Shown here in pieces: positions 34,715 through 64,000 of a stretch of 64,000 bases of DNA. Both the position numbers and the translations under genes were made by a program. The stretch is taken from assembly GCA_039621445.1 (NCBI GenBank), contig CP154954.1:3539715-3603714 (forward strand), given 5' to 3'. This DNA is from Euglena gracilis. Lineage: Eukaryota. The first letter of the stretch is position 1. The number at the start of each line of letters is the position of its first letter. The notes below the pieces were generated by a model. The model was not told the DNA's origin and did no database searches. It saw only the letters and a program-made list of their open reading frames with translations.

Positions 34715-36985
34715 CTCTTTTCTGGGAATTCACTTGGATTTTCTGGCTTCAGCGCTTCAAAATACCACTTTTTTGTAATCCTTCCGCCGGAACTTCCACC
34801 AGTAAAACTGAATGCAAGGCATCAAAACAAAGTCTTCCAAGACGTTTTGAACAAGGTATTCAGCTTATTTTATTTTACCACCTACAAAGTGAAATGGCAA
34901 TTTTTTGGTTGAATTAGGCTTTGCTCTTCCTAATTTTTGCTGTAGCCAGCCGCCCTCCCACACACCCCTCCCAGGCCAATGCCGACAACGTACAAAATTA
35001 GGCGGCTGGCATTGATCTAGGGTTTTTGGTCTGAGGGTGGTTTTTTTTGGGGGGGGGGCGCTGTCACGGACGTAATGTACAACAAAAACCAATTAAAGCG
35101 TAAAGCAGCTGCTGCCAGCAATCCCAGCAAATACAACACAAATCCATGACCCCCCTTGCCCGCTCCAGGGACGCCTGGGACGCATTTGGGACGCCATCTT
35201 AGGAACCTGCGGTTTCCCCCCAAAAACCACAAGTTATCCCAGAAGGCCCCCCAGAAGCCCAGACCGGCTCAAGTTTCCAAATGTGAATGCCAAGGCTGGG
35301 CCCCCTAGAAGCGGCACCCACAAATTGGAAAGGCCAAGAACCAACAATTTTCAAAATCCAAAATTGACATTGAAATTTTGACAATTGATTCTGCATATCT
35401 TTTTTTTTTTGACATGGACATGTTGAACTTTCCTCTGCCCAAATTGTGTGCATTGATCCGAGCCGAATCAGGTACCATTGACTGCCCAAAGGATTTGCAA
35501 CACAAATGGACAATTGAAACTGATTTGCACAGTGTGTGGTGTGGCATAAGGGGCTGCTGGGCCCAAAAATGCTAAAGCATTTGCCTCCCAACCCATCACA
35601 ACAGTACATAACTTTGGGACTGGAAATGACATGTGCATTTTGCCTGGTGTGTCCTGGGGCTGCTGGGCCCAAATTTGCTTTTGGAAAGTGCCTCCCAACC
35701 CAAAATGGTGTGGCAAAAGGGGCTGTGTGGCCCGAACTTTCCATACCTTGAACATGAACACCTTGACTTAACTGAATACCTTGAGTTTTCTGAGATGTCT
35801 CTTTTCTGGAAATTCACTTGGATTTTCTGGCTTCAGCGCTTCAAAATACCACTTTTTTGTAATCCTTCCGCTGGAACTTCCACTAGTAAAAGCGAATGCA
35901 AGTGTGGGCGGCGGGAGGCGGCCTGGCGCCTGCGCACTGGAATTAGCGAATATTATACGCCATTCCGCTACTTTTTTTACCTTTGTACTCCCCCCCCCCC
36001 AGGTTCTCTCTTCCGAATGTTTCATTCAAAGAATTGTGCATGCTGAATGAAGAAGAATCAAAATATCAATCTGATTTCAATAAAACAATTGTCCAAGAAA
36101 TTCAAAAAAGTCAATCCGGAAGGTAAAGAAAAAGGGGAAACCAAGGCAGCAATTCAAATTCAAAAAAGAAGGGCAACCGGCGCTGGGAAGCAAGGTGAAG
36201 GTGATCTTCCGCCCCCCCCTCTACCCTTTTTTTAAATTCAACCCAGGCTTTTCCTCCCCCCCCCTCCTACTGCTTCCGAGGCACCCCCAAGGAGTTGGCC
36301 AAACATACCGTTCCCCCCCCCCCATTTTTTGAATTATTTGGCTGCCGGAACCCAGGTTCTGGCTGAATTCAGGGACCGAAAGACACAAAAAAAAAGGAAT
36401 TTTTGGGGCGCGTGTGCCTATTTTACCGGAGCGCCGGGTGACTGTTTTCCCCCACTCGGCCTGACGGGGAGCCCATTCCGCGCACGGTCACCGAACCGGT
36501 GAGAGGGGAAAACTGGTAGCAGAGGTTGATTCCCGAGGAAGGGGAGTGTGGCCGGTTCGAGGCCGGCCAACTCCCCCGAGCGAACACGGGCGGACCACGT
36601 GGCGGTAATCGGGCGACAGCCCAGGGTCGAGACCGGAGAAGGCCCTGCAGGCGGCACGCCTTATTATCGCCACCGGTACCCGAGTGGATCTGGCACTCGG
36701 CTGTGGTCCCAAAGATCCCGGTTCGAGTCCCGGCGGGCACCCCCAAGGGGGTAAAAAGAAATGCCCGACCGGAGAGAAAGAGAATTCGATCCTACGCCCC
36801 AGGCAACAGAACTAAAGGCATCAAAACAAAGTCTTCCAAGACGTTTTGAACAAGATATTCAGCTTATTGCCACCTACAAAGTGAAATGGCAACTTTTGCT
36901 GTGAATTAAGCTTCGCTCTTCCTAATTTTTGCTGTAGCCAGCCGCCCTCCCACACACCGCTCCCAGGCCAATACCGACAACCTAC
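34715..36985 (+). repeat. Local direct duplication (~34715-34990 and ~35797-36985); the second copy is split by a ~0.9-kb insert (~35902-36815)
   Basis: GAATGCAAG|GCATCAAAACAAAGTCTTCC is contiguous at ~34810 but separated in the second copy. Confidence 0.85.
36421..36756 (+). ncRNA. Candidate structured RNA or tRNA-related SINE-like element with a degenerate tRNA-His-like module (36676-36740)
   Basis: Several 7-14-bp helices, two GGTTCGA T-loops, a GTG anticodon-like loop, a terminal hairpin and an A-rich tail. There is no evidence of expression. Confidence 0.5.
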
Positions 36986-37531
36986 GAAGAAGGGTTTTAA
37001 GAACAAGTTGCCACACTTCAAGTTACAAGGTTCAAGGTCCAGGTGTTTTGCTTGAAAGTTGAGTACGTCGAAAGAAAAGTTAATGAACAGCTTGAGCAGA
37101 GTTTGAGGAGGTGCTTCAGAAGTTCATCGTGCTGTGCTGCAGAAGTTATTGGTACCTTGGTTCCGTTTATGTTTCAGCTGTGTTTTGCCTTGCCCAAATC
37201 TGGAAAAAAAAATCTTTCAAACTGATTTTGTTTTGTCAAACCAGCAACTGCAACATTCACCCCCCTCCCCATTTTTGTGCCGCATATTGGAGGCCACACC
37301 TTTGCCACATAGGGGGAAACATTTTGGGTCCAGCTTGTTGGCACATTTTGGGGACATTTTGGTGCACATCTTGGCGGCAGTTTGGTGCCACAGCTGGGAA
37401 CCAAGTCCGGACCGGGGGAGAAGGAAAACAAAGGAATAATAATGCAGCAGAATACCACCTGTGGAGAGAGAAGGGGCACCCATTAGGAAATCCTAATAGG
37501 ATGTTCCTCCATCCTAACTCCCTCATCGGGC

Positions 37532-37559
37532 ACACTTTCTGAGTGTCTATTTTTTTTCG
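37532..37559 (+). other. Euglena spliced-leader exon copy, probably the 5' end of a retrocopied trans-spliced mRNA
   Basis: ACACTTTCTGAGTGTCTATTTTTTTTCG matches the Euglena SL as recalled. It is followed by TTCGCATATC-ATG rather than the GT of an SL RNA intron. Confidence 0.88.
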
Positions 37560-37887: not shown

Positions 37888-38645
37888 CTGTGGCCCCAGG
37901 GCCTTCTGAACACTCCAGAGATGTGGCCCCAGGGCCCCCGACTTTTGCCATGATGATCCCAGATTTTGCCCCAGGGCCCAACAGATTTCAAGCCAAAAAG
38001 AACACTTACACAGAAAAGTTTTTCAGAGCTGTGGCCCCAGGGCCCAAGGCCTTTGCCATGATGCTCCCAGATTTTGCCCCAGTGCTCAACACATTACAAA
38101 TGAAAATGGACACTGGCACAGGAAAGTTTTTCAGAGACGTCTCCCCAGGGCCCCAGGCAGAGTTTTCCCCAGGGCTCAACAGATTTCAAGTCCAAATGGA
38201 CACTGGCACAGGACAGTTTTTCGGAGATGTGGCCCCAGGGCACAAGACTTTTGCCATGTTGCTCCCAAATTTTTCCCCGGGGCTCAACACATTTCAATGG
38301 ACACTGGCACAAAAAAGTTTCTCAGAGATATGGCCCCAGAGCCCAAGGCTTTTGCCAGGATGCTCCCAGATTTTGCCCCAGGGCTCAACACATTTCAAGT
38401 CAAAACGGACACCTGCACAGGAAAGTTTTTCAGAGATGTGGCTCCAGGACCCCAGGCAGATTTTGCCCCAGGGGTCAACACATTTCAAATCAAAATGGAC
38501 ACGGGCACAGAAAAGTTTTTCAAAGATGTGGGCTCAGGACCCCAGGCTTTTGCCATGATGCTCCCAGACTTTGCCCCAGGGCTCAACACATTTCAAGTCA
38601 AAATGGACACTTGCGAAGGAAAGGTTTTAGGAGAAGTGGCCCCTC
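37888..38645 (+). repeat. Tandem 108/90-bp repeat array, largely open (DVAPGPQAFAMMLPDFAPGLNTFQVKMDTGTGKFFR units)
   Basis: Unit spacings counted as 108, 108, 90, 101, 108, 90 and 108 bp. Confidence 0.9.
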
Positions 38646-45655: not shown

Positions 45656-48600
45656 AGGGACCCACAAGGCCTTTTTGTACTCCCTCGAGGCAGACCAACA
45701 AGGGAGGAAGGGACACCGAGGACCAGACCAACAAGGGACGAAGGGACACCGAGGGCGAAGCACGAAGACCTTGTGAGGCCATGCCTTGCTCGCCGGCGGT
45801 GTTGTTCGAATTGTTTGCTGCGTTGTGTTAGGGGGTGCCCCTTAGTGCTGCTTCGCCAGAGATGGCTGACGATTCTGCTCCGAGTTGGCGACGTGGCTTC
45901 TTGCCCCTTGGGGGGAGTCCCCCCCCTCTGCCCCCCCTGGCCCCCATTTTCTGACCGAGTGCATTTGAAGACGTTTTTTTTCCGGGTGGGGGTGTCGGGC
46001 TAACAAGGTGTTCTTCGCCCTCGGTGTCCCTTCCACCTTTGTCTGTTGTCCTCAAGGGAGTACGAGACACCACGGGCTCCGCACTTTGCCCTTGTGAGGC
46101 CAGATTTTGCACTAAAAATAGGGGGGCCAGGGCATTTTCCAGGGCACCTTGAGCACCAAGTCTTTGATAGAGTGCTGTAAAAGCCTCCACCCCCCTCCAC
46201 AATTTCACAAACCTCTTGCGCACAAAGGCCCAAGTTTTTGAGTAAACCAAACCCTGCCCCTCTTGTGGAGTGGGCCCCCCACACCTGGGTGGTTACCACA
46301 TGCCTGGCCAAATATCCTATTGTTATAGAAGCAACGGTATCTGCCCCTACAGCCCTGAAGGGGGGTTTAACGAAATCAGAAGGGGCCCCCAGGTCTGACG
46401 ACTGAACGTGTGGCAGTCACATAAGACATCATTAAATGAAAGGCGCTTATTTGTGGACATGGGGGAACTGACACCACTCTCTCCCACGTGTGACACTTCT
46501 GGCCTTTACGCTTAATTTTGTGTAGGGTGCCCTACCCAACACACTGGTGGTTCGTTTAATCTGTGCCAAGTCTGAGGACCTGCATAAACAGAGGAAGCGT
46601 GAGAAAAAAAAGTTGTGTACGTAATGTACAAATATCAGTGGGCTTTGGGGCCTTGGCCAGCCCCAGGTGTATTGAGACCATTGGGTCTCAATGAGTGGAA
46701 ACTTCAAAATCCCTGTGACGGAAACTTTTCACCGAAATCCTTGTATTTTTCATAGTATTTGATACACAGCACCAATTCAAATGCTTGTGGCTTTCTGAGT
46801 CATTGTGTTCAGGCTGGTTGCGGTCTGTGTGAAATTGTGTGATTTCCCCCTTGAATTAGGAGGCTCCGCTCCTAATTTGTGGCTCTGAACCTGAAATTTG
46901 GTTTTTCTGGCTGCAGGGCACCGGGCCGCCCACACAGGAGGATTGGGACGGGATCCCAAAATGCCCCATGCTTCTCCACGTTTTGGTTCCAAAGACTCTT
47001 GTAAGGGGTTAACAGGGTGTGGAATCTTGGCCCACCAAAACCAGGAATCAGAAGCATAGCACTGTATGCGTTACGGCCTTGGGACTTATAGAATTGGAAT
47101 AATTGTACTAAAGCGTCAACCACCTGGTCTGTGGTTGCTTCAGGGAGGGGGCACGCCCATGTGTTCCAAAATTACCCACAGAAGTGCAAAAGCACTCTCA
47201 TAAAGTTTTAAACCGTGCTTTCTCCCCAGGAAATCGTGAATGGTTTGCACCTGAATTTGTTTCTCCTCCAAAATTTTCCTCAGCATGTCATGCAAAAAAT
47301 GCTGCCAATCTTGGGGGTGGCATTTGTTCCCCCATGCAATTGGTGAACCTACCCCTGTAGGGGGTGATTTTCAGGCAGGTGGTCCCTGGAACTATCATTT
47401 TTATTGATTAGGGCCACCATTTGGCTGACTCCCAGTAGGGGGTGACCATCAAAACTTTGGTCTGGGGAAACATTTCCAACCTGGGCAGAAATTTTGAACT
47501 ATTGAGCAGGGGGGTTTTCCATAAAGATCCCCCATGTTGTCCAGTGGACATTGTAGTGCACTTACTGCTGTGGCCTCCCAGTGGGGCCATCTGGCCACGA
47601 AATTGGGCAGTTTTTTTTGTTGCCTCTGGAGGCAAATAAATCTGTTTGCAAGTGATTGAAATTCTTGAAATGCTGTCTTAGCCAGTGAAAAATCTGGGGG
47701 TCCAGGGAGTAATCCCCCCTGTCCATTTCCCATCTGCTGATGGGGGGATTCTTTTGAAGGAACGCAGCTGACTGGTTTTGTGATGCACCATTGGAAGAAT
47801 GGTCTTAGCTTTTTGTTGAATGGGTCTTTTCTGCCCCCCATTTTTGTCATTTTGTCAGGTAATAGTAAATGACCTGGTTGTCCACTGACAAAGAAACTGT
47901 TGCCCCAGGTTTGCTCAAATTTTTCACGGTGCTGATTGCTACACTGAGCTCCTTTACATTCATGTGCAAAATGGAGTCTTTCCTCCACATTTCCTGCACA
48001 ATTTCTCCTGTGATGATGTCCAGCCCCCCCTCCCCCCAGGTATGGGTGCTGCTGTCTGAGTGTAACTTTCTGGTTGCGTTTTGGGGAAAGGTCCGCCCCC
48101 CAGGTGTCCAGTAAAATTATTATTTCTCTTAATTGGGACTTGATTTCCTGGGAAATGGGGTGTTTTTGAGTCCTAGGTGGCTGTGGACTTTGCAATCAAA
48201 AAATTGCCAGGGTGTCTTTAAAGCCATTAAAAAGGGCAGGGCCATTAGGTTGCATCTTATTTGACACAAAATGGCAGCCAACTGCCTTTTTGACATGTAA
48301 TCTTTTTTCACAACTTTTCCAAGCTCCTTTTTTATGGTTATGACATTCTGGAGGGTAGCTGTAACTTTCCTTCCTGGAAGTTTAGTTGAAAGCCCAGATG
48401 GGTTACCACTTGGGTGGGCTGCAGGGTGGACTTTTTCAGATTGATTTTGAACCCTCAATTCAGAAAATCTTTGACAACTGTGTTCAGGTTATTTTATAAA
48501 AAACTCGTGTGGGGGCCACCAGCAAAATGTCGTCCAGGTAAATAAAGACCTGGATGCGCCTTTTTCTCGACACCTTTTCGAATGTTGTCATTACTGACAT

Positions 48601-50555
48601 GAAAATTTGGGGCATTACATTTAGCCCAAAGCAGCCTGTTTGAAATTCCCAGATCTGTCCCCCTACCTGATGCCTTAAAAATGGCCTGAGGCCAGGACTT
48701 ACTGGAATATGATAACAGGCATCCTTTCGGTCTATTTTTGCTGCCCAGTGGCCTTTCCCAAAACTTGAAAAATGTTTTGCATATGATCCAGCTTGAAAGG
48801 TTTTACCTGAAACTGCTTGTTTATTTCTCTGCAGTCGCTGATGATTCTCCATTTGGTTGTTCCCCCTTCTGGTTTGAAATTAAAAACCATGGGATCAAAT
48901 GCTGGGTTTCTGAATCCCAAACTCGTTTCACTGACCCAGTTTTTTCGTAATCCAGCAGAATTTTTTCTGCCTGGTTCAGGTCCAAGTTGGATCTGGGTTT
49001 TGGGTGGGTGGACAATTTGGGGGGATTTACCCAGGGGGGTTGAATTCCATTCTTTTTTATCAATTGACATGTTGCGTGGGGTGCAGTTTTTGTCCATCAT
49101 TTTTTTTGAAGTCTCTGGTACAAGGGGTGTCCCCCCATTTTTCCTCCATGGAATGTATTTTCCCAACTAGATGATTTTCTGGGTGCTGGGTGGGGGGTGT
49201 TGGACATTTCACAGCCACTAGAGCCCCTAGGGCTTGAGCACTCTGAAAAAGAAAGTGTTCCTGGGGGTTTTGCATGCACCCTCTCCCTCTCTGCTCACAC
49301 TCTCTCTGGAGGATCTTGTTGTTGGTTTCCATACCATAGGACTTACTGCCCCTGCTTTGCCTATCTGGATTGATGTTAATGGGGTTTGGTAGCCGTACCA
49401 TAGGGGGCCTCTGTGGGTCCCCCCTTGTTGATTGAATTGTAATAAATGCTGGTGGGGAGCCTCCCCCTTCCTGTTCCTCCTTGCTGGCAGTTGGGGGGGC
49501 CATATTTCTTCTGGTGCTGGACAGGGGGCTGCCAATTTAAATTTTAAGCCCTTGCAGGGCTGTCCCTTAGCTTCTGGTGGGCCTGTGAGGGACCTCTCCT
49601 GTGGTGTTGTTGTGATTGTTGATCTTCTTGTTGATATTTCTGGCCCCAATGTCCTTGATGATAAATTGAAAGGCCCCAATGGCCTGATTTGTTTCTGGGT
49701 CGCCATGCCCATTTGAAATCTTGAGGGGTTCTTGGGTCCCCCACCCAGACCCCTGAGTGGTGGTGTGATTGAGAAGTGGTGGGGATGTTGTGTAAGACCT
49801 TGTCTGCCCCTGCCATGTGCTGTGGGGTCTTGCTGCTGGTTTCCACCTTGGCCTTTGTTCCAGCGACATTTGTAAATACACACGCGTTCATGGCCGTTTT
49901 GTGCCGCCATGGCCTTTGTTGCCTTCACAGCCTGTGCGGTTCTGGCTACCATAGCCACGCTTTGATGTGCATTGTGTTGTGGAATGTTGGCCCCCATGCC
50001 CCTGGTTGCAATGGCCGTAGTGGCCTGCTGACTGTTGCTTCTGCCCCTTGCGGGGTCTTCTGCCAACTGTCTGCCAGGGTCTGTTGCCATCACTTTGGCG
50101 GGGGGGGGTTGTGGAAATTCTTTTGGGGAAATTTCTTTTGTGGAAGGGGCAGCCACGGTTGGCCACAGTCGATCCGCGCCGTCAGGTTGTCCGGTTGTCC
50201 GGTTGTCAGGTTGTCTGCTGCTCCCTCTTGAAATTCTCCAGCGCTGTTCGTCTTGGAAATTGCATTTTTTATTGAAATCTTTCAGATGCTTCAACAATTT
50301 CTGCGTTGAGGTTCTGCACCAGCGTCTTTTCCAGGATAATTTGAATAGTTTGATTGACTTCTTCTTCCTCCAATTGATAAGGTATTAGGCGTTCCTTTCT
50401 TCTGGGTGTCGAAGGGAAAACTAATAATCATCCAACTCCGGCGAAAAAGGGCACTAGGCGGGACCTCCTAACCCAACGCAGCAAAACAATCCAAACAACA
50501 CCGCCGGTGAGCAAGGCACGGCCTCACAAGGGCAAAGTGCGGAGCCCGAGGTGTC
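45656..50555 (-). mobile_element. DIRS1-like tyrosine-recombinase retrotransposon, copy A (near full length, degenerate)
   Basis: gag-like region; RT (WRIISDCREIN, KID.KDA.YHIPV, FGLNVMPQIF, YLDDILL); RNase H; methyltransferase-like region; tyrosine recombinase (R.SDL, HSTRGAG, YQRLG); ITRs and internal complementary region (ICR). Many frameshifts. Confidence 0.92.
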
Positions 50556-51500
50556 GTGCTTCGCCGTCGGTGTCTCGTAATCCTTCGAGGAAAACCGACA
50601 AGGGAGGAAGGGACACCGAGGGCGAAGCACAAAGACCTTGTGAGACCATGCCTTGCTCGCCGGCGGTGTTGTTTGGATTGTTCTGGTGCGCTTGGTTAGG
50701 AGGTCCCGCTTAGTGCTGCCTCGCTGGAGTTGGCTGACGATGCTGCTCCGACAGGGCGACGTGGCTTCTTGACCCTGGGGGGTGTCCCCCCCTTCTCCCC
50801 CCCGGCCCCCACTCTCTGACCGAGGGCTTTTGAACACAAATTTTCTTTTACGGGTGGGGGGGGGGTCGGACTCACAAGGTCTTTGTGCTTCGCCCTCGGT
50901 GTCCCATCCACCTTTGTCTGTTGCCCTCGAGGGAGTACGAGACACCTCGGGCTCCGCACTTTGCCCTTGGGAGGCCAGTTTGTGCACTGAAATTCGGTGG
51001 GCCAGGGCATTTTCCAGGGCACCTTGGGCACCAAGTCGTTGGTAGTTGGCTGTAAAAGCCTCCACCCCCCTCAACTGACCAATTTCACAAACTTGCTTGG
51101 GCAGAAAGGCCCAAGTTTTTGAGTAAACCAACCCTGCTCCCCTCGTTTTGTGGGCCCCCCACCTGGGGGGTTACCCTATGTTTGGCCAAAAAGTCTTTTG
51201 TGATGGAAGCAACGGTGTCTGCACTTATGACACTGAAAGGGGGGTTTTAATGAGACCAAAAGGGGGCCCTCAGGTCTGACGACTGAACATGTAGCAGCCA
51301 CATAGCACATCATCAAGTGAAATGGGCTTATTTGGGGACACTGGGGAATGGACACAACCCTTTCCAACTTATGGAATTTCTGTCCTTTACGCTTAATCTT
51401 GATGTAGGGTGCCCTACCCAATACACGGGTGGTTTGTTTGACTTGCGATAAGTCTGAGGATCGGTATAAACAGAGGATTCGTGAGAAACAAATTAGTTGT

Positions 51501-54500
51501 TGTTGGGGGGCTTGGACGACCCTCGCCGCCCGGGGGGGCCGCTGCTTTCGCTGGGGCCACAAATTCCTTTTCCTGGCCCTGGTGGGCTCAGGCCAGGGCC
51601 TTTGGTAAGTTGGGCCCCGTTTTAAACAAGTCAACAGGCGGTAATGGGGGTGAGGTGTGCCCCCCCGAGCCAGGTCCCCCTGTCTCCCCGCGTAGGATCG
51701 TTTTTAGCCTCCACTGTTTTGCCTTTTCAAACATTTGGATCAAAAGGTGAGCAAAGACAAAACCAACCCACCTACTTGGAAGCACACAGCAGAGCACAAC
51801 AAACCTGCTGGCGAGGGTAGGTGAGTACCTTTGAGTTCAGGTGTTGAGTGAGAAAAACAATATGGAAATGAATGTCTTGGCTTCTTTGGAATTGTCCTTT
51901 TTGATCCTTCAATTCTGAATTGAATTTTCTGCTTTTCTGATTCTCAAATCGAATTCTCGAATTCTTGCTGGAATTTGCTGGGGTTCCAATTCCTCGCGCG
52001 TGGCGGTTGACTTGCTCTGGTGGTTCCTACTGGGGGTTTTTGTCAATTTTCCGGGAAATTTTTGGCTGCCGCCGCCAGCGGCAGCCGACACCCCCTCCCT
52101 TGCGACGTTAGTCGGACCCGTTTTTCTGCCTCCTCCCCGAACAAAACGAGGAGTGAGAATTTGTTTCATTTTCTTTTTTCTTCTTTTTTTGTTTTTGTGG
52201 GGGGCGAAAATTCTGTGTTTTTTTGTAACGGGTCCTGTCGCGTTTTTTTTTGTGTGTGTTACGAGTCCACCCCCCCCCAGCCATAATATCGGGCACCTTG
52301 GGGGACTCTGAAAAAATCAGGTCTTCGGGGGAAGCCCCCCCACCCCTTTCCTCCGACAAGCATGGAGAAGGGGTCTTTGAACACAAAATCTGAAAAACGA
52401 TTCCAAACGAAACAAAATCTGGGCACTCCCCCCCAAGGCCTAAGTTTCCACGCTACCCCCTCGTTGAAAATCTTTTTTTTGGCAGCTTTCATTCAGTGAG
52501 ACTTCGACTTCGATTTTTTTTAAAAAATCAGGGACTTTGGCCAACAGTGCCTGAGAAACCGACTTGTGTGGGGAAAGAAAAAGAGAAACCCAGGCATTCC
52601 TTTCCAATTCGGGACAGAAAGGGTAAGGAAAAGGCAAACGGTGAGCAACAGTGCAAAGGTGAGAGGGTAAGCAGTTATATGGAATAGTGTACAAATGGGT
52701 GTGTGGGTTCGTGTGCGTGTGCGGTTGTGTGTTTTGTGTGTATGCACGCTCACTTCCTTGTCATGCACTCCAACCGAAAATGACTGGGCCGTTTTTTTTT
52801 TGAACGCAAAGAGAACAGCGCTTCGCAATGGCCCTCAGCCACCATATCACAGGGCTTTAGTGCCCACGTGGCTGGGTTTTTTTATTATATTGCCCCACAC
52901 CAGGGCCTTTGGACGGAGGAGGGGTCATCTCCGGTCCAGGGTCCCCCCCCAGGATGCCTCCATGCTGTGTTCCATGAAAATATGCCTTTGACGAATAATC
53001 AGAATCCAAACCAAATCAAAAAAACTGAGTTCTAAAACTCCAACTCGTTCTGCCGCCCACCAGAAAAATTATCAAAATCCCAGGTTTTTTCCAACTGTTT
53101 GTGTAAAAGTCCTCCAGCAACAAAAATCCCCAAAAAAATCTGAGTCCAACCCACAAATCCAGGGCCTGCAAAAGCCCTCAACTAAATCCAATCGAGAATT
53201 CCAACTGCCACATACAACAAACAAAGTCCAACCGAGATCAACCAACCCAACAGAAGCAACATCCAGCAGCACACCATTGCACAGGGGCCAGGCCATTCCA
53301 GCCCAACCCTGGGCACAACCAATTCACAGCCGAAACCAACCAATTCGGCTTGCCAATTAAAATCCACTGCCCCCCCCCCCCAATCACACAGGGCAATGGG
53401 GGTCAAATGGTCAAATGACATGGTAAACTCAAAAATACTGAAAATTCAAATCCAATTTTCTCAGCCAAAGCGATTTTTTGCTGCCCCCCCCCCCAGGCAC
53501 ATGGGGCCATGGGGGTCAATCTGGCTTCTGCCTCCAAACAAAAAAATCACAAACCTGGGCCGTAATATCCAAAACGGCTGAAATATCTCACATGTCAAAG
53601 GACGGGCCTTCACAATGTCGCCCCCACCCCCACCGTCAACCAGTGTGGGGAGGGCCACGGGTTAAAAATTCCTGTCTGCAAAACTGAAATCCCCATTTGA
53701 CGAAAAAAATGGGGAAAATGGATCTTTCATCAAACCCCGCCAATTCTGGGGTATGACCAAAGCAATCACGGTCACCATTTGATGCAATCCTGTCCCCACC
53801 CAAACGTCTCACAGGGGTATCCAATTCTGAGTCAAAAAATTCCAACCGTAGAGCCAAAACTGATTTTGATCCACACCAACAAAAAACATGGCTCACCACA
53901 GCCCCCCCCACCAGCTGCACGAGGAGGGAGAAAAAATGGCTCCAAACCACAAGCAAAAACCTGAGACCCAAAAACATGAAAAATCTGAATCAGCGCTGTG
54001 GGAGCAGCCAACCTGGGCCTGGGCTTGGCCGTGCATCGGGCCACTGCCCACTGCAGGCTCTTGAGGTCATTAAGCTTCTCTCCCCAGCACTTCAGTAAAA
54101 TAAATGAATCCACCATTCAGTGGTTCCATAAACAGTCCACAGTTGTAATCATGACAATTATAATCATGTGATTCAATTTCTTGGGTCCCATTGATGTCAT
54201 TGAAATCTGTTCTCATCTCATCATCACATTGAAATAACTCATTCTTTGAAGTCGATTCTTTGCAAACTGTTGAAATTGTTGAATTCAATGTCAAAATCAA
54301 TCAAAGTCCAATCAAATCAATCAAAGTCCTTGATAATTGACTGTTTTGCTCCTTCCGTTGATTCTCCTTGCTCGGTGATCGATTGCTTGAACCTGCACGA
54401 CAAGGCAACACACACGCACAAATTCACCACTGGCAACACACAAGGCAGATTTCTTAATTTTCTCACTGAACCGAACCTGAAAATGCCACTGAACTCTGAA

Positions 54501-57119
54501 CCATAACGGCACTTAAAAATCTGATCATGATCCATCAAATGGGTCACACGAAAACTGCTCAAACAAGCCTCAAACTGCAAAAATTACCTTTGGGAGTTTT
54601 GCATTGTGAGGCGTCCCCCACTTCTGAGTTTTTCTCCCTCCAGCAAACTCCACAGCCGAAAAAAATGCCGCAGAAAGTGCCACCCACAGAACAACAGATT
54701 TTCCACAAACTGAACCAAATGATGATGATGCCACTGATGGGCCCAAAAATGAGTTTTCCTCAGGGGTGTCTTTTCCTCCTGGGTTAATCCACCTTGGTTC
54801 CCACTTGGACTGAAAATTGAAAACTGTTTCCTGAGCCCTTAGATGGGTGGCCACAGGGGTGTTTATTCCTTGCCTGGGTCTAGCCCCACCCTTGGAACCC
54901 CTCTTTGCGCACTTTCCCAAAAACTTTTTGGTTCGAGTGGTCCATCAGAGGTCTCCCCCCGACACCAGGCTTTGGCAAAAACCCAGATAAAACCTGCCAC
55001 AGGACTGCTGGGCTGCCACACTCGAAAACCACAATGAAACTGGACTGGAAAATCCCGAAAACTGTGCCGATTCTCCAACATGTGTCCCTGTCCGGGGGTG
55101 AAGTTTCTCACTGGAAAAACTGTCCCGTGACAAAAGGGACCAGAAAAAAAACAAATCAAAAATCCAACCTGAAATGACTTATTTGTCCCCGTCTGGGATG
55201 ATGACACATGTCAATGCCGTGCCCCACCCCAAATGACATTTGGGACAACCGAAAAATGAAAACTCTGAAACTGAAAATGAAAGATCATTGATCTGGCTGC
55301 CTTAACACTAGGAGAAATTTCCCCAGCATCGTGGCTGGGCGTCTCCATTTAAGTGGAAAGCAACTGGGGAAAAACATGCACCCCAGAAACCAGATTCAAA
55401 AAATGTTTGACTTGGCTGTTTTTCATAAGCCAAACTCTGCAAACTGAAAATCCAGAATTTGTCCCCGACCTGATTGCACGTCTGCCTCCAACGCTAGCGC
55501 ACCGTGAAAAACGTATCACAAAACAAACACAAAACAACCCACAGAAACACACTCGACACTGCAAAGTGCTGTGCTGTGCAAGTCAGTGGTCAGACCTGTG
55601 CTAAAAAAATCACCACCACCACGAAACCACCCCCAGCTGTTCCATGGACTTAAATGCCAGTCCCAACCCCACCAATCTTGAAACCAATTTGGCCTCAAAA
55701 ATTGAAAGTCGTTCCAACTGTTTTTGACAGGCCTCCAGATTTTTTTCGTCTGTCTGAATTTTCTTGGCTGTGCAGCAAAATCTGAGGAAGATTTCTCAGA
55801 AGACACTGTTGACGGCTGCAAATTGGTGACATGTCCAGAAGTCAGGTTCTGGACATGTCACCAGCAGGCACAAAAATGTTCTGGACTTGGCAATTTTTCA
55901 CTGGGTTGCAGCTTTTCAGCGATTTGCAGTTCCAACATTTTAATTTGTTCCCCCAATCGTCCTATTTCTTCTGTTGCCACACTTAATAAACATTGCACGT
56001 CAACCAGCTGTTTTGTCAGAGCCTCGTCTCTCTCAGACAGGAAATAATTCTCAAAACGGACTTCAAGGTCATAACAACAACCTCGGACAGTTTTGTCCAT
56101 TCGTTCCATTCGTCGTTCAATTCTCCGACGCCACTCAGCCAGATCAAGTCCCTCAAGATAACTGGGCTCACGCTGGTTGGATCCTTCCTCAAAATTTTCA
56201 CTGTCAAAATCCTCAAAAACAGGAGGACGGTCTTTTATTTCAGTTTCACCTTTCAGAGATGAAGAACCACCACCTTCAGCATCTGAATAGATTCTGCTGG
56301 CAGAGCCAACAGATTCAACCCCTCTGCTTTCCACATTGCGGGGTTCAGAAACAGAAATTTGCTGAGAAGATGATTGCACTGAAAAATTTACTGGCCACAT
56401 GCCAGCAGCTTTCATTCGACGCTCAACCATTTCTTGAATTATTTCTTCCTCCGTTTGGGTTTCTGATTTGTCACAGACCAAATCCAGAAATCCTTCACTA
56501 ACAGAGTTAGTGAAGCCACCTCTGCTACCATGTTGGGGGGCTTGGAGGACCCTCGCCGCCCGGGGGGGCCGCTGCTTTCGCTGGGGCCACAAATTCCTTT
56601 TTCTGGCCCTGGTGGGCTCAGGCCAGGGCCTTTTATAAGTTGGGCCCCGTTTTCAAACAAATCAACAGGTGGTAATGGGGGTGAGGTGTGCCCCCCCGAC
56701 CCAGGTCCCCCTGTCTCCCCGCGTAGGATCGTTTTTAGCCTCCATTGTTTTGCCTTTTCAAACATTTGGATCAAAAGGTGAGCAAAGACAAACCAACCCT
56801 CCTACTTGGAAGCACACAGCAGAGCACAACAAACCTGCTGGCGAGGGTAGGTGAGTACCTTGAGTTCAGGTGTTGAGTGATAAAAACAATATGGAAATGA
56901 ATGCCTTGGCTTCTTTGGAATTTTCTTTTTTGATCCTTCAATTCTGAATTCAATTTTCTGCTTTTCTGATTCTCAAATCGAATTCTCGAATTCTTGCTGG
57001 AATTTGCTGGGGTTCCAATTCCACTCGCGTGGCGGTTGACTTGCTCTGGTGGTTCCTACTGGGGGTTTTTGGCAATATTCCGGGAAATTTTTGGCTGCCG
57101 CCGCCAGCGGCAGCCGACA
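51501..57119 (-). mobile_element. Degenerate LTR retrotransposon nested in the DIRS recombinase region
   Basis: ~590-bp direct repeats 51501-52090 and 56531-57119 with TG..CA ends; 4-bp TSD TTGT; primer-binding site (PBS) TGGTAGCAGAGG (56519-56530, tRNA-iMet); polypurine tract (PPT) AAGGGAGGGGG (52091-52101); gag-like coiled-coil ORF ~55858-56500; weak integrase-like GSEFSG ~54490. Confidence 0.9.
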
Positions 57120-59600
57120 TTGTGTACACAATGTACAAATATCAGTGGGCATGAACGCCTTTGCCAGCCCCAGGAGGATTGGGACGGGATTCCAAAATGC
57201 CCCATACTTCTCCACGTTTTGGTTCCAAAGCCTCTTGTAGGGGGTTAACAGAGTGTGGAATCTCAGCCCACCAAACCCAGGAATCAAAAGCGTAGCACTG
57301 TAGGCATTACGGGCTTGGGCCTTAGAAAATTGTAATAATTGTATTAAAGCGTCAGCCGCTTGGTCTGTGGTGGGGAATTTGTTAGGATTTTCTTGACCAA
57401 GACGTTTTTGGGATGAAGTTTGGGCCATTTTTGACGAAATTCCGTTTTGGGTGCGGAAATGAAACAGTTTTTGGCACTTCTTTCAGGGGAAAAGATTTTT
57501 GGCCATTTTTGGGTATGAAGGTGCATTGGGCAGACAAGGATACATGAAAGTTCATTCTTTTTAAAAAAAAAATGCTTTTGAAAAAAAGAATGGCGGAGGA
57601 TGGATTCTCGGGTCACGTCACGGGGATGTAACGGGGGGGGGTCACGGGGGTGGCACCCCCTGAGAAAAAAAATTCTTTTTTTAAAAAAGACTTCAGGGGG
57701 GGGCACGCCCATGTGTTCCAAAATTACCCACAGAAGTGCACAAGCACTCTGATAACGTTTTAAGCTGGGGTTTATCCCCAGAAAATCGTTAATGGTCTCA
57801 ACCTGAATTTGTTTCCCCTCCAAAATTTTCCGGAGGGAATCATCCAAACCAGGGTCCATCTGGGCGGTGGCATTTGCTCCCCCCTGCATTTGGTGAACAT
57901 GCCCCTGTAGGGGTTGATTTTCAGGCGGGGGGTCCCTGGAACTTTCATTTTTATTGATTGTGCCCACCAGGTTGCTGGATCCCAGTAGGAGGTGACCATC
58001 AAAACTTTGGTTTGGGGAACATTTTTCAACCTGGGTAGAAATTGTTGCACTATTGACCAGGGGGGGTTTGGCAGTTTTCGGGAGGCAAATAAATCTGTTT
58101 CCAGACTTTTGCAAAATTTGAACCGTTGTTTGAGCCAGTGAAAAAGTTGGGGTTCTGAATAATAATCCCCCCTATCCATTTCCCATCTGCTGGTGGGGTC
58201 TGCTAGGCATTCTTTGAAGGTACCCAGTTGACTTGGAGGTTTAGTTGGTGCTCAATGCGCCACTTGAAAAATGGTCTCAGCATTTTGTTGAAGGGGTCCT
58301 TTCTGCCCCCACCTTTTGTTAGGTAAAAGTAAATTACTTGGTTGTCCACTGACAAGGAAACAGGTTCCCCAGGTTTGCTCAAACTTTTCACAGTGCTGAT
58401 TGCTGCACTGAGCTCCTTTACATTCATGTGCAAAATGCAGTTTTTTCTCCAAAATTCCTGCACAATTTCTGCTGTGTGGATGTCTGCCCCCCCCCCAGGC
58501 ATGGGTGCTGCTGTCTGAGTGCAACACTTTGCTTGCATTTTGGGGGAAGGGTCTGCCCCCAGGTGTCCAGCAGAATTTTTATTTCCCTTAATTGGGCTTT
58601 GATTTCCTGAGAAATGGGGTGTTTTGAGTCCCAGGGGGATGTGGCCTTTGCCACCAAAAAAATTGCCAGGGTGTCCGTAAAAGCCCTTAAAAACGGCAGG
58701 GCCATTAGGTTGCACCTTATTTGGCTCAAAATGGCGGCCAACTGCCTTTTTGACATGTAATCTTTTTTTCACAATTCTTCCCAGCTCCTTTTTTATGGTT
58801 TTGACTTTCTGGGGGGGACCTGTAGTTTTCCTTCCTGGAAGTTCAGTTGAAAAACCAGACGGGTTACCACTTGGGTGGGCTGCAGGGTAGACTGTTTCAC
58901 ATTTATTTTGAACCCAGAATCCAGCAAATCTTTGACAACTGTTTTCAGGTGACTTTGTTTACTGTTTTGGGTGGGGGCCACCAGCAAAATGTCGTCCAGG
59001 TAAATAAACACCTGGATGCCCCTTTTTCTCTCCACCTTTTCGAATGATTTCATCACTGACATTAAAATTTGGGGCATTACATTTAGCCCAAATCAGCCTC
59101 TTTGAAATTCCCAGGACTGCCCCCCTACCTGATGCCTTAAAAATGACCTGAGGCCTGGACTTACTGGAATATGAAAACAGGCATCCTTTCGGTCAATTTT
59201 TGCTGCCCAGTGGCCTTTTTCCAAATATCATCCAGCTTGAAAGGTTTTACTTGAAACTGATTTTTTTTTCTCTGCAGTCGCTGATGATTCTCCATTTGGT
59301 TGTTCCCCCTTCTGGTTTTGAAATTAAAAACCATGGGATCAAATACTGGGTTTCTGAATCCCAAACTCGTTTCACTGACCCAGTTTTTTCGTAATCCAGT
59401 AGAATTTTTTCTGCCTGGTTCAGGTCCAAGTTGGATCTGGGTTTTGGGTGGGTGGACAATTTTGGGGGACTCACCCAGGGTGGCTGAATTCCATTTTTTT
59501 ATTATCAATTGACATGTTTCTTGGGGGGCATTTTTTGTCCACCATTTTAGTCTTTTTTTGAAGTCTCTGGTACAAGGGGTGTCTCCCCATTTTCCTCCAT

Positions 59601-60870
59601 GGGGACAGGGCAGTACAGTTTGGAGAGTTGGTCAAACCTTGGGACCCCCCCCTCCCCCCCTGTACAGTTCCAACCCACCCCTCCCGGGACCCCCCCCTCC
59701 CCCCCACTTCCAACCCCTCCGAGACAGATGGAAAAAAAATTAAAAAAACGGCTTTTTTTGAAACAAAAAAACATGCTTTTTTAAGGGGGTGGTGCGGGTT
59801 GGGGGGGGGTCATGGTGGGGTCACGGGGCGGGGGGGTGTTACGGGGGAAGTAGGCCACTTTGCAGGTAGCCGGGAGGCAACATTCATGACGTTGCATCGT
59901 GATAAAATTGGTCAAAAAACCTCATGGAGGGTTTGGGGGAATTTTTTTGAAACTTTTTTTTAGAAAAAAGGTATTTTTTCATCTCTGCAGCTTCGTAGTC
60001 CGTGAAGAGTGCTGGATGAAGTGTGAGGAAAAACTAAAAAAACGTCACTTTTGATGACCAAAAAAAATGACCTTAAAACCTTTTCCGCAAAAAATGGCCA
60101 TTTCGCAAGGAAAAGGGGGTGTCTGGGACGCGGGGGGGGGACGCGGGGGGGGGGGGGACGCGGGGGGGGACGCGGGGGAGACGCCATTTTTGAAATGGTG
60201 AAATTAGGAATTTGCTACCAGAAAATTTTAGCCAAATTAGGATTCTACCACAACAAATTAAGAATCACCTACCCCAAATTAGGAATCACAGACCACAAGT
60301 TAGGAATCACCCACACCAGATTAGGAATAACCAGCCTCAAATTTGCCTGAAATTAGGAATCAGCCTCCTAAATTTGGCTGTCTCCAGAACAAAATTTTGG
60401 TTCCAAAGTGGTACGCGGGGGGGACGCGGGTGGGGACGCGGGGGGGACCCGGGGGAGACACCCGCACAAGGTCAATTTTTGCTTTTTTAAAAAAAGAAAA
60501 CATGTTTTTTGGGTTTTTTTTGAAATAAACATATTTTGTTCTTTGTTGAAAAAACAAAAAAAAGTCAACCCTGGCTCAATTCCGCATGGTGTGCCAAGTG
60601 GGTGTGATTTGAAGCTGCTTCCTGCCTTTCTGCTAAGTGTTTAAAGTGAAAACACTGGCTACCATTCTTTTCACAAGACACAAATATTTTGCGAAATGCA
60701 TCTGAATTTCGCAAAATCCACCATTGCCAACCTCAATTGGATGAAAAATGTCGCAACTGTCTCGGGGGTGGGCAGTACAGTTGTGATTTTCTGGGGACCC
60801 CCCTCCCCCCCCCCCCTGTACAGCTTCCAACCACCCCCCTCGGACCCCCCCCCCCCTGTGCCTTGTCTCC
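59601..60870. mobile_element. TIR element with GG..CC ends and 3-bp TSD (CAT), composite interior
   Basis: Ends GGGGACAGGGCA / TGCCTTGTCTCC. The empty site CTCCATGGAATGTATT is seen in DIRS copy A at ~49144. Confidence 0.8.
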
Positions 60871-62241
60871 CATAAAATGTATTTTCCCAACTAGCTGATT
60901 TTCTGGGTGCTGGGTGGGGGGTGTTTGACATTGCACCCCTGGTGCCCCTGGGGATTGAGCATTCTCTAAAGGTGGCTGGGGGGGGTGTGCATGCTCTTCT
61001 CACAGGTTCTCTGATCCTCCACTTTGTCATTGGTGCTGTCGATTGACATACCATAGGGGCCCCTTTTTGGGTCTCCCGCTGGTTTTGGTTTGCCCCTGCC
61101 ATGGGCATTGACAGAGAATGTTGAGGGGGGGTTGCCCCCTTGTCCACCACTGCCCCTTTGGGGGCATCCTCCTGGGGCTGCCACCGTACATTGAAACCCC
61201 CTGCTGGGGGACAGCCTGTTAGAGTCTGCGGTTTTTCCCCTTCTGATAATTGATGGCCCCAGAGGCCTTGAAATTGTTGATGTTGTTGATGATAAATCTG
61301 GCCCCCTGGCCCTCTTGATGTTGGCTCCACTCTTAAAATTTTGATAGTCCCCATTAACTTCTTTTGGATGTTGGGTGCCATGCCCATTGAAAAACTTGGG
61401 GTACCACTGGCGGCCCATCCTGTACCCCTGATGGGGTTTGAGATGAAGAAATGATTGGGGGTTGTTGACCTGTCCTGGCCCTGCCACTGGGCCTCTGTTT
61501 GTGGAATTTGGCCACCCTGGCCTTGGTATTGTTGGCCACCCTGGCCTTTGTTCCATCGGCCGCCATGGCCATTGCTGTTTTGGCCGCCATGGCCCAGTTT
61601 GCCATTGTGGCCGCCATTGCCCAGCTTGCTATTGTGGCCGCCATGGCCCAGCTTGAACAAGGTATTGGTGTAACTGGCAGAATGTTCGCCCCAATGGCCC
61701 TGGCTCCAATGGCCGTAGTGACCTGCTGGTCGTTGTTTCTTCCCCGTTCAGGGTCTTCCGACCACTGTCTGCCAGGGTCCGTGGCCATCACTTTGGAGGG
61801 TTTGAGTTCTGGAAATTTCTGTGGGGGAAATTTCTTTTGGGGTAGGGTCAGCCACGGTTAGCCACAGTTGACCCGCGCCTTCAGGTTGTCCAGCTGCTGC
61901 TGCTGCTCCCTCTTGAAGTACTCCAGGGCTTTGCTTCTTTGAAGTTGCATCTTTCATTGAATTCTTTCGAAAAATTCAACAACTTTTGATTTCAAGTTCT
62001 GCGCGACCGTGATTTTCTTGATAATTTGAGTGGATTGATTTTCTTCTTCTTTTCTCAATTGGTGAGGTATTTGAAGTTCCTGTCTTCTGGGTGACGAAGG
62101 GCAAATTAGGAATCAGCCAACTCCGGCGAAAAAAGGCACTAGGCCGGACCTCCTAACCAAAGCGCACCAGAACAATCCACACAGCACCGCCGGCGAGCAA
62201 GGCATGGCCTCACAAGGGCAAAGTGCGGAGCCCGAGGTGTC

Positions 62242-64000
62242 GTACTTCGCCGTGGGTGTCTCGTGCTCCCTCGAGGAAAACTGACAAGGGAGGAAGGGAC
62301 ACCGAGGGCGAAGCACAAAGACCTTGTGAGACCATGCCTTGCTCGCCTGCGGTGTTGTTTGGATTGTTCTGGTGCGCTTGGTTAGGAGGTCCCGCTGAGT
62401 GCTGCCTCGCTGGAGTTGGCTGACGATGCTGCTCCGACAGGGCAACGTGGCTTCTTGACCCTGGGGGGTGTCCCCCCCCTCTCCACCCCCCGGCCCCCAC
62501 TCTCTGACCGAGGGCTTTTGAACACAAATTTTCTTTTACGGGTGGGGGGGGGGTCGGACTCACAAGGTCTTTGTGCTTCGCCCTCGGTGTCCCTTCCTCC
62601 TTTGTCTGGAGGGAGTACGAGACACCTCGGGCTCCGCACTTTGCCCTTGAAAGGCCAGTTTGTGCACTGAAATTCGGTGAGCCAGGGCATTTTCCAGGGC
62701 ACCTTGGGCACCAAGTCGTTGGTAGTTGGCTGTAAAAGCCTCCACCCCCCTCAATTGACCAATTTCACAAACTTGCTTGGGCAGAAAAGCCCAAGTTTTT
62801 GAGTAAACCAACCCCTGCCCCCCTGGTTTTGTGGGCCCCCCACCTGGGGGGTTACCCTATGTTTGGCCAAAAAGTCTTTTGTGATGGAAGCAACGGTGTC
62901 TGCACTTATGGCACTGAAGGGGGGGTTTTAATGAGATCAGAAGGGGGCTCTCAGGTCTGACGACTGAACATGTAGCAGCCACATAGCACATCATCAAGTC
63001 AAATGGGCTTATTTTGGGACACTGGGGAAAGGACACAACCCTTTCCCACTTATGGAATTTCTGTCCTTTACGCTTAATCGTGATGTAGGGTGCCCTACCC
63101 AACACACTGGTGGTTTGTTTCACTTGCGATAAGTCTGAGGATCGGTATAAACAGAAGATTCGTGAGCAAAAAATTAGCCGCGTACACAATGTACAAATAT
63201 CAGTGGGCATGAACGCCTTTGCCAGCCCCAGAATGATTGGGACGGGATCCCAAAATGCCCCATACTTCTCCACGTTTTGGTTCCAAAGCCTCTTGTAGGG
63301 GGTTAACAGAGCGTGGAATCTCAGCCCACCAAACCCAGGAATCAAAAGCATAGCACTGTAGGCATTGCGGGCTTGGGCCTTAGAAAACTGTAATAATCGT
63401 ATTAAAGCGTCAGCCACTTGGTCTGTGGTGGCTTCAGGGGGGGGGGAGGGCAAGCCCATGTGTTCCAAAAATACCCACAGAAGTGCACAAGCACTCTGAT
63501 AACGTTTTAACCTGGGGTTTATCCCCAGAAAACCGTTAATGGTCTCAACCTCAATTTGTTTACCCTCCAAAGTTTTGCGGAGGAAACCATGCAAACCAGG
63601 GGCCACCTGGGCGGTGGCATTTGCTCCACCCTGCATTTGGTGAACATGCCCCTGTAGGGGGTCATTTTCAGGCGGGGGGTCCCTGGAAATTTCATTTTTA
63701 TTGATTGTGCCCACCAGGTTGCTGGATCCCAGTAGGAGGTGACCATCAAAACTTTGGTTTGGGGAAAATTTTTCAACCTGGGTGGAAATTGTTGAATTAT
63801 TGACCAGGGGGAGTTTGCATAAAGATCCCCCATGTTGTCCAGTGGACAATGTAATGTATTTACAGCTGTGGCATCCCAGTGGGGCCACCTGGCTACAAAA
63901 TTTGGCAGTTTTTTGTTGCCTGTGGAGGCAAATAAATCTGTTTCCAGACTTTTGAAAATTTTGAACTGTTGTTTGAGCCATTGAAAAAGTTGGGGTTCTG
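62242..64000 (-). mobile_element. DIRS1-like retrotransposon, copy C (3' part; runs off the window)
   Basis: ORF 62857-63981 is tyrosine-recombinase-like (LYRSSDL, KRKGQK, LLISLKPP) and overlaps a methyltransferase-like frame (LYANSPW..YWDPATWW). Right ITR and ICR at ~62260-62650. Confidence 0.92.

Follow-up and report, generated by a model that had tools for sequence, protein, structure and literature searches.

The locus and its insert

The window analysed here is a stretch of 64,000 nucleotides of euglenid DNA: the spliced leader of E. gracilis occurs in it letter for letter, and it holds a single reverse-transcriptase fragment (48487-48879) whose closest relatives are E. gracilis transcripts, a protein-atlas comparison of this fragment having yielded no usable taxonomy. 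Within the window, an insert of 911 bp (35903-36813) splits a duplicated host segment. When the region was compared with the window by blastn, 34717-34818 matched 35801-35902 on the left side of the insert and 34816-34996 matched 36815-36988 on the right; the paralogous host-repeat copy without the insert lies on the plus strand at 34717-34996, as delimited by blastn and junction comparison. The empty site reads GAATGCAAG followed by GCATC, with the break at 34819/34820, while the filled site reads CAAG, the insert itself (TGTGGG to GAACT), and then AAAG and GCATC. The matches on both sides and the empty site bear out an earlier note on this DNA, which had proposed an insert of ~0.9 kb splitting a duplicated segment. 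The insert is also bypassed in five contigs of the DNA run X1, with 915-1042 bases skipped. Junction comparison indicates a probable 4-bp target-site duplication, CAAG on the left (35899-35902) and AAAG on the right (36814-36817); it is imperfect, the two copies agreeing at three of four letters, with AAG exact on both sides.

Among the 143 open reading frames of at least 120 amino acids in the window, one has a Pfam match (RVT_1), which lies outside the insert, and no match was obtained for the reading frames across the insert. The repeat that holds the reverse-transcriptase fragment is without the 12-mer primer-binding site described below, no recognisable signature of a long terminal repeat (LTR) or primer-binding site marks either end of the repeats, ~0.9 kb long, that belong to this reverse-transcriptase-bearing element, and no autonomous partner was identified. 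Region 36421-36756, which the earlier note had read as a candidate multi-domain structured RNA, is CpG-rich as claimed, with an observed/expected ratio of 0.94 vs 0.56 for the whole window. All the motifs listed for it were located, with the exception of the three hairpins within an 11-bp stem and of the tRNA-His-like fold, which are discussed below.

Terminal repeats, primer-binding site and copies

The 5' part of the insert is an LTR-like terminal repeat of 611 bp (repeat A, 35903-36513, plus strand), which starts with TGTGGGCGG, adjoins the primer-binding site (PBS) at its other end and was delimited from contig boundaries. Its left boundary is visible at 35901-35906 in contigs of X15 and X20, with the purine-rich GGTAGGAAGGGG directly before the repeat in an X20 contig; the right boundary lies at 36513/36514, X1 contigs of repeat A losing their match at 36514-36520. 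Repeat A has collinear similarity to the 590-bp LTR of a proven LTR element elsewhere in the window (described below), with a z of 2.9 in the sense and -0.7 in the antisense orientation. It begins with TGT, and canonical TG...CA termini are absent, the repeat running from TG to AC(T). The letters ACT before GGTAGC are common to the end of repeat A (...AAAACT), the end of the element (...GAACT) and the head-to-tail joint found in other copies (...GGACT).

Repeat A closes with 93 nt (36421-36513) that form a putative U5 end and hold a 9-nt helix formed by GTTTTCCCC (36444-36452) and GGGGAAAAC (36505-36513), which are 100% complementary, together with an alternative pairing of GGTGAC (36437-36442) and GTCACC (36487-36492); the fold of 36444-36513 has a z of -2.4. 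The single multi-domain RNA of the earlier note is not upheld, since its first 93 nt are the end of an LTR-like repeat and the repeat boundary runs through it.

Two further features of repeat A were observed. In one X1 contig its end is joined to its start, with 12 letters between. Its 3' half (36272-36491) is uncovered in X3, X15 and X20, whereas in X1 no other part has deeper cover.

Directly after repeat A comes the PBS, TGGTAGCAGAGG (36514-36525, plus strand), the complement of the 3' end of initiator tRNA-Met (...CCTCTGCTACCA). The same 12-mer recurs at 56519-56530 on the minus strand, which makes two matches in the window, against none in any of 100 shuffles, and confirms the identity claimed earlier between this site and the PBS of an LTR element. 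The latter, at 51501-57119 on the minus strand, is a bona fide LTR element on the evidence of its LTRs (51501-52090 and 56531-57119, 96.4% alike), PBS, perfect 4-bp target-site duplication (ACAA) and empty paralogous site near 63177/63182; the polypurine tract before its 3' LTR reads AAGGGAGGGGG. In published work, the PBS 12-mer serves as an initiator tRNA-Met probe or as a PBS. For the pairing to take place, the E. gracilis initiator tRNA-Met would have to end in ...CCTCTGCTA(CCA). A literature search found no report of PBS-bearing LTR elements from Euglena.

The PBS is followed by a non-coding, GC-rich internal domain of 219 nt (36526-36744, plus strand) and by a polypurine tract, AAGGGGGTAAAAAGAAA (36745-36761, plus strand), in which 16 of 17 letters are purines and after which this copy continues with TG. 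This tract is what had been described as a terminal hairpin and A-rich tail. The last 52 nt of the element (36762-36813, plus strand; TG...AACT) form a short 3' terminal repeat, recognised from contig joints. Most other copies have six extra letters (CCCTGG) in this repeat, nearly all have G where this copy has TG at 36762, and in most of them the short-repeat sequence also appears to stand directly upstream of the PBS, where the present copy has the 611-bp repeat. The end repeats of this copy are unlike: the best local match of 36752-36813 is weak and falls in the middle of repeat A (z 2.9, with 6 of 300 shuffles scoring equally).

Both repeat A and the core repeat (unit B, taken as 36511-36813, with the PBS at its start) are extremely abundant. 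In X1, 4704 contigs aligned to a segment of 1301 bases, 1104 of them at an identity of at least 99%. Contigs of unit B in X3 and X15 begin their match at 36511 and end it at 36808-36809, contig 9 of X15 begins at 36763, and past 36809 the loose ends have the consensus CCCTGGAACT, after which the letters are mixed. Three of the four runs compared, the DNA run X1 included, show head-to-tail joints (36809 to 36511), although in such k-mer contigs terminal repeats are indistinguishable from tandem arrays or circles; individual joints, which link the ~50-58 nt after the polypurine tract to the PBS, leave the unit at 36803-36810 and re-enter it at 36511 after 5-11 intervening letters, in at least six contigs of X1, one of X15 and one of X3. 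Relatives of both repeats were found in nine contigs of X20, a metatranscriptome run that may hold DNA, two of them at an identity of at least 95%.

Inside the window, no copies were found beyond a PBS 13-mer and low-complexity poly-C matches. Exact-pattern scans gave no match for two stretches of the unit in metagenome contigs, for one in viral contigs or for one in prokaryote genomes, and a search of the literature for six sequence strings of the unit found no occurrence. Two of the three frame translations tried were without homologues in a word-index search. An exhaustive search with the third returned one long protein without an aligned stretch and P0019, from a metagenome contig, which is 65% identical in translation over 36506-36679, PBS codons included, and differs in sequence upstream of the PBS; P0019 is itself a translated copy of the element.

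With its exact PBS, its polypurine tract, its empty site and its very high copy number, the insert agrees with the non-coding, tRNA-iMet-primed mobile element that the earlier note had put forward as one possibility. We consider it probable that it is a non-autonomous, gene-less LTR retroelement of ~0.9 kb, primed by a tRNA and resembling miniature retrotransposons with terminal repeats (TRIMs), in a euglenid host (Euglena gracilis or a close relative). The supposed structured RNA is most likely the succession of an LTR end, a primer site, a folded core and a polypurine tract, an anatomy that comes close to the ordinary LTR leader which the earlier note had itself named as the case against its proposal. 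The core family runs from the PBS through the internal domain and polypurine tract to the short terminal repeat and measures about 305 bp, which gives it the look of a TRIM-like element of very small size.

Folding and tRNA likeness of the internal domain

Three parts make up most of the internal domain: a hairpin (36541-36576), a stem domain (36599-36673) and, at 36676-36740, a degenerate segment derived from a tRNA. The 7+7-bp hairpin was found as described, with a folding energy of -28.6 kcal/mol and a z of -5.3. The 11-bp stem (36599-36609/36663-36673) is likewise present, its module having a z of -5.5, but in the minimum-energy fold it encloses one long branched hairpin and not the three hairpins reported. 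The whole 336-nt region (36421-36756) folds with a z of -4.0 on the plus strand and -1.8 on the minus strand; for 36514-36761, the z is -3.3 in this copy vs a slightly worse -2.7 in a version carrying the majority letters of the other copies. Two of these letters (36573 C>A and 36599 G>C) break stem pairs, while a third (36738 C>T) restores one and yields a perfect acceptor-like stem of 7 bp.

The tRNA-His-like fold proposed for 36676-36740 did not materialise: the segment does not form a cloverleaf, its fold (z -0.4) is equalled by 63 of 200 shuffles, ARAGORN detected no tRNA gene in the window, and the Rfam tRNA model, with GUG in the anticodon loop, reached 13.2 bits (E 6.6), its gathering score being 29. 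The best Rfam match was mascRNA-like (18.9 bits vs 42.5), and no family exceeded its threshold in the region. The two tRNA-mimic modules are in this way reduced to one sub-threshold tRNA score and one hairpin with a T-loop-like loop.

Some tRNA likeness persists nevertheless, in the form of two exact B boxes on the plus strand (36554 and 36720), an A box matching at 10 of 11 letters (36677), which lies 43 nt upstream of the second B box, and a tRNA-model alignment that is full-length though weak. Together with the acceptor-like stem perfected by the majority letter, the head-to-tail joints and the very high copy number, these traits recall tRNA-derived SINEs, and unit B could be an independent SINE or satellite of this kind, transcribed by Pol III, copied by a LINE-type machinery and placed beside a solo LTR by insertion preference or chance. 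We regard this as unlikely. No run of four T occurs on the plus strand of 36449-36843, so that a Pol III terminator is missing, and with it support for the Pol III unit suggested earlier; the A-rich or simple-repeat 3' tail of a SINE is also absent, and the tRNA-like part sits in the 3' half of the unit instead of at its 5' end. The unit opens exactly with the 12-nt PBS and has a polypurine tract, neither of which a SINE needs, as well as probable terminal direct repeats. LINE-mediated insertion typically produces target duplications of 5-20 bp, and the duplication flanking the insert measures 3-4 bp.

A second alternative holds that the hairpins are without function and simply follow from the GC-rich and partly palindromic make-up of the repeat DNA, the copy being a young one of an element in decay and the tRNA likeness a relic or due to chance. 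The shuffle-level fold of the tRNA-like segment, the stem pairs broken by majority letters, a diverged hairpin variant in X1 with two uncompensated mismatches and the fairly good folding of the minus strand are all consistent with it. Against it stand the z values of -5.3 and -5.5 of the two stable modules, the distribution of variable sites, where paired positions make up 66% of the total but account for only 4 of the 12 sites among the best-supported differences (P 0.018; 33 further differences are not counted), and an X20 contig that is 92% alike over 36532-36737 with different flanks. On this evidence we judge the alternative improbable.

It is comparably doubtful that the ~305-bp unit, with terminal repeats of ~55 nt, ranks among the smallest LTR-type retroelements known and carries, as its conserved internal domain, a self-expressed, tRNA-derived structured RNA, either transcribed by Pol III from its A and B boxes or circular/multimeric; if true, this small unit would represent a hybrid of a SINE with a TRIM or retrozyme in Euglenozoa.

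Very unlikely, in our view, is a retrozyme-like origin in which unit B would be an abundant structured RNA of ~0.3 kb, circular or processed from multimers by an unrecognised cleavage/ligation mechanism. The plus strand does fold better than shuffles, as given above, head-to-tail joints and relatives in the metatranscriptome run were observed, and plant retrozymes, according to PMC4918200, also combine a PBS for tRNA-Met with a polypurine tract and duplications of 4 bp. However, the joints occur in DNA as well and are what k-mer contigs of terminal repeats would show. In addition, X15 is labelled as RNA by guesswork, and DNA may be present in X20. The self-cleavage considered in the earlier note found no counterpart either: the hammerhead core CUGANGA is absent from both strands of 35903-36900, and no ribozyme family was detected at E values up to 10 in an Rfam search whose scope was the contiguous window sequence. 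A suspected similarity to the HDV ribozyme was not borne out by any Rfam match.

Finally, a nonconventional Euglena intron, with the empty copy as the processed one (compare PMC6221363), is an unlikely explanation of the insert because the insert has the anatomy of LTR, PBS and polypurine tract and because each of the two repeats is abundant independently.

Relation to known elements and significance

The TRIM-like retroelement that we favour has several properties of this class, whose defining features, according to PMC6934838 and PMC7215508, are a PBS, a polypurine tract and the terminal repeats: it is shorter than 1 kb, lacks coding capacity, has a probable short target-site duplication and reaches a high copy number. 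TRIMs in tandem, TRIMs with left and right repeats that differ and TRIMs with tRNA-like stretches in the internal domain have all been reported (PMC6934838 and PMC7215508). It departs from them in that TRIM repeats are typically identical and 100-250 bp long, whereas the inferred family repeat measures ~52-58 nt; in addition, the 5' end of this copy is an unrelated repeat of 611 bp, the termini are not TG...CA and the host is a euglenid. The plant TRIM Cassandra, according to PMC7215508, is likewise a non-autonomous LTR-type element that contains the sequence of a Pol III-type cellular RNA and forms head-to-tail arrays, but its LTRs contain 5S RNA complete with promoter and terminator, whereas the tRNA-like piece is internal here and has no terminator. 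Plant retrozymes share the non-coding character, the tRNA-Met PBS, the polypurine tract, the (here probable) 4-bp duplications and the head-to-tail signals, and PMC4918200 states that the PBS and polypurine boxes are the sole sequence they have in common with other LTR elements; they are defined by hammerheads in LTRs of 300-400 bp, of which this element has none.

In such an element, the RNA would be copied by a reverse transcriptase supplied in trans, with the minus strand primed by tRNA-iMet and the plus strand by the polypurine tract. The stable hairpins would then be cis signals for packaging or dimerisation and not tRNA mimics. The unlike ends of the present copy could have arisen by recombination, or by a strand transfer in which two types of element were linked through the PBS that they have in common.

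As a structured-RNA discovery, the finding is modest: what the evidence indicates is the leader of a transposon, not a novel class of functional RNA. The element is most likely mobile DNA of an ordinary type, and it is the host that has been little studied. PMC11252322 describes an E. gracilis assembly of 2.37 Gb, about a third of which is unclassified repeat and in which 4882 tRNA genes are predicted; the transposable-element library of that study may already include the present family. With the family defined, a very abundant share of this unclassified repeat fraction would be assigned, and the tRNA-like relic of the element may contribute to inflated tRNA-like predictions. LTR elements primed by tRNA-iMet would also be worked out in a euglenid for the first time, and they would offer a simple setting in which to ask which RNA hairpins a gene-less element needs for being copied in trans.

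Two repeat units and the primer-binding site at their boundary

The region 36421–36756 is better read as part of a euglenid TRIM-like retroelement family, comprising an LTR end, the primer-binding site (PBS), the internal domain and the polypurine tract, than as the novel multi-domain RNA carrying two tRNA mimics that the earlier note had suggested. The note's observations are largely correct, and its inference of a tRNA-primed non-autonomous mobile element is supported. Parts of 36400–36820 are present in 20 of the 24 public sequencing runs listed, with at most 0.58 of the sampled words, and contigs from four runs were mapped onto 35700–37000. In the DNA run X1, 4704 contigs match this interval: 1104 at ≥99% identity, 1802 at 95–99%, 1387 at 90–95% and 411 below 90%; the host repeat flanking the insert (35903–36813) is itself highly repeated. 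Contigs of the left unit (repeat A, 35903–36513) lose their match at 36514–36520, and those of the right unit (unit B) start at 36511 and end at 36808–36809. The contigs thus separate A from B, and the region spans a repeat boundary at 36513/36514, where the PBS starts.

Unit B, on the + strand, opens with the PBS for initiator tRNA-Met (36514–36525), followed by a GC-rich folded core, a polypurine tract AAGGGGGTAAAAAGAAA (36745–36761) and a closing terminal stretch of about 52 nt, TG...AACT (36762–36813). As the earlier note had observed, the 12-mer TGGTAGCAGAGG at 36514–36525 is identical to the PBS at 56519–56530 (−); these are its only two sites in the window, and it was found in none of 100 shuffles. 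Elsewhere, copies have the sequence that follows the polypurine tract joined directly to the PBS via CCCTGG-type letters absent from the window copy. Such joints, from 36803–36810 to 36511, occur in X1 (at least six contigs), X15 and X3 (one contig each), and imply that the same ~55 nt are present twice, once behind the polypurine tract and once ahead of the PBS; contig 9 of X15 starts at 36763, the start of the post-polypurine stretch. The duplicate would fit LTR-type terminal direct repeats, and a tandem array or circle equally, k-mer contigs not discriminating between them. Past 36809, nine X1 contigs run on as CCCTGGAACT and then split (agreement 0.63), a divergence compatible with an element end at AACT, where the window copy ends (36813).

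Folding and conservation

All sequence motifs listed in the earlier note are found where it placed them. The helix 36444–36452/36505–36513 is perfect over 9 bp, the hairpin 36541–36576 is well above shuffles in stability (z −5.3), and the CpG observed/expected ratio is 0.94 in the region versus 0.56 across the window. The 11-bp stem closes a stable module (36599–36673, z −5.5), but its interior folds as one branched hairpin instead of the three proposed. The supposed tRNA-His-like fold is weak (z −0.4), with no ARAGORN call and an Rfam tRNA score (13.2 bits) short of the 29-bit threshold; an Rfam scan of the whole window gave no family at gathering score. For the entire 336 nt, the fold scores z −4.0 on the + strand against −1.8 on the − strand. 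With two B boxes and an A box close to perfect, the region would suit a Pol III SINE, an unlikely origin given that terminator and tail are missing and that the PBS, polypurine tract and terminal repeat would be left unaccounted for.

The hints on structural conservation are indirect and mixed. Paired positions make up 66% of the sequence but hold only 4 of the 12 variable sites listed (P 0.018; 33 further differences exist), which counts for structure. So do the majority letter at 36738, which mends the acceptor-like stem, a contig of the metatranscriptome run X20 with 92% identity over 36532–36737 and unlike flanks, and the metagenome-contig ORF P0019, with 65% translated identity over 36506–36679, PBS codons included. 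Against structure count two stem pairs (36573, 36599) broken by majority letters, the slightly poorer fold of the majority-letter version (z −2.7 versus −3.3 for the window copy) and a diverged hairpin variant with uncompensated mismatches. That the hairpins are functionless features of a young copy appears unlikely. A retrozyme-like circular RNA, with which head-to-tail joints and a PBS/polypurine pair are compatible (PMC4918200), is very unlikely: neither a hammerhead core nor any ribozyme family was found, and the joints are present in DNA as well.

Surrounding sequence

The 26-nt E. gracilis spliced leader, as given in PMC6242988, occurs exactly at 37534–37559 (+); the next letters, TTCGCATATCATG, are not a GT splice donor, and the copy looks like a retroposed trans-spliced mRNA rather than an SL-RNA gene. 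Just downstream lies a tandem array (37916–38596; periods of ~90–108 and 299 bp, 83% matches), and upstream of the host repeat, 35549–35735 is an imperfect three-fold repeat of the motif GGGGCTGCTGGGCCCAAA...GCCTCCCAACCCA. Two copies of a ~5.8-kb repeat (45717–51500 and 57124–63998, 82–90% alike) contain ~310-bp palindromic inverted repeats (50428–50737 and 62113–62423) and bear the window's sole reverse-transcriptase fragment (48487–48879, −); no LTR or PBS junction was recognisable in them. This fragment, RVT_1, is the single Pfam match among 143 window ORFs of at least 120 aa, and its best relative, at 76% identity, is a transcript from E. gracilis (EukProt). Together with the spliced leader, these results indicate E. 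gracilis or a close relative as the host. Across the window, TAG and CTA trinucleotides are at ~0.3 of even expectation, both strands contain long frames free of stops, and poly-C and poly-G runs of 10–12 are common.

Insertion site and relation to a proven LTR element

The insert does split a duplicated segment, as had been noted: 34717–34996 is a continuous paralogue of 35801–35902 plus 36815–36988, and the junctions are clean. The empty site reads GAATGCAAG/GCATC and the filled site CAAG[TGTGGG ... GAACT]AAAG GCATC, which gives an element of 911 bp and a 4-bp duplication with three of four letters agreeing. The window copy, with terminal repeats that differ from each other, is therefore no canonical TRIM. 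Recombination may have produced it, or strand transfer between two element types at the common PBS. TRIMs with differing left and right repeats are on record (PMC6934838). No published account of Euglena LTR elements with a PBS was found, nor any publication for six strings of unit B, in a search outside which the assembly paper's repeat library lay.

Repeat A starts with TGTGGGCGG, preceded in an X20 contig by the purine tract GGTAGGAAGGGG. We read it as an LTR; its final 93 nt, a putative U5, open the region. In one X1 DNA contig, the end of repeat A is followed, after 12 other letters, by its start (36513/35902). Several contigs omit 90–195 bases within its first half, indicating that repeat A is internally variable. 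It shows collinear likeness to the window's proven LTR in sense (z 2.9) but not in antisense orientation (z −0.7). That element (51501–57119, −; 5.6 kb) has LTRs of about 591 bp, 96.4% alike, with TGT...ACA ends, the same tRNA-iMet PBS as unit B, a polypurine tract AAGGGAGGGGG and a perfect 4-bp duplication ACAA, and sits in a larger repeat with an uninterrupted paralogous copy at ~63177/63182. Its internal ORFs of at least 120 aa carry no Pfam domain, so it is probably non-autonomous too. The proven element demonstrates that tRNA-iMet-primed LTR retrotransposition operates in this genome. For E. gracilis, a genome size of 2.37 Gb has been reported, LTR elements making up 21.8% and unclassified repeats 32.7% (PMC11252322).
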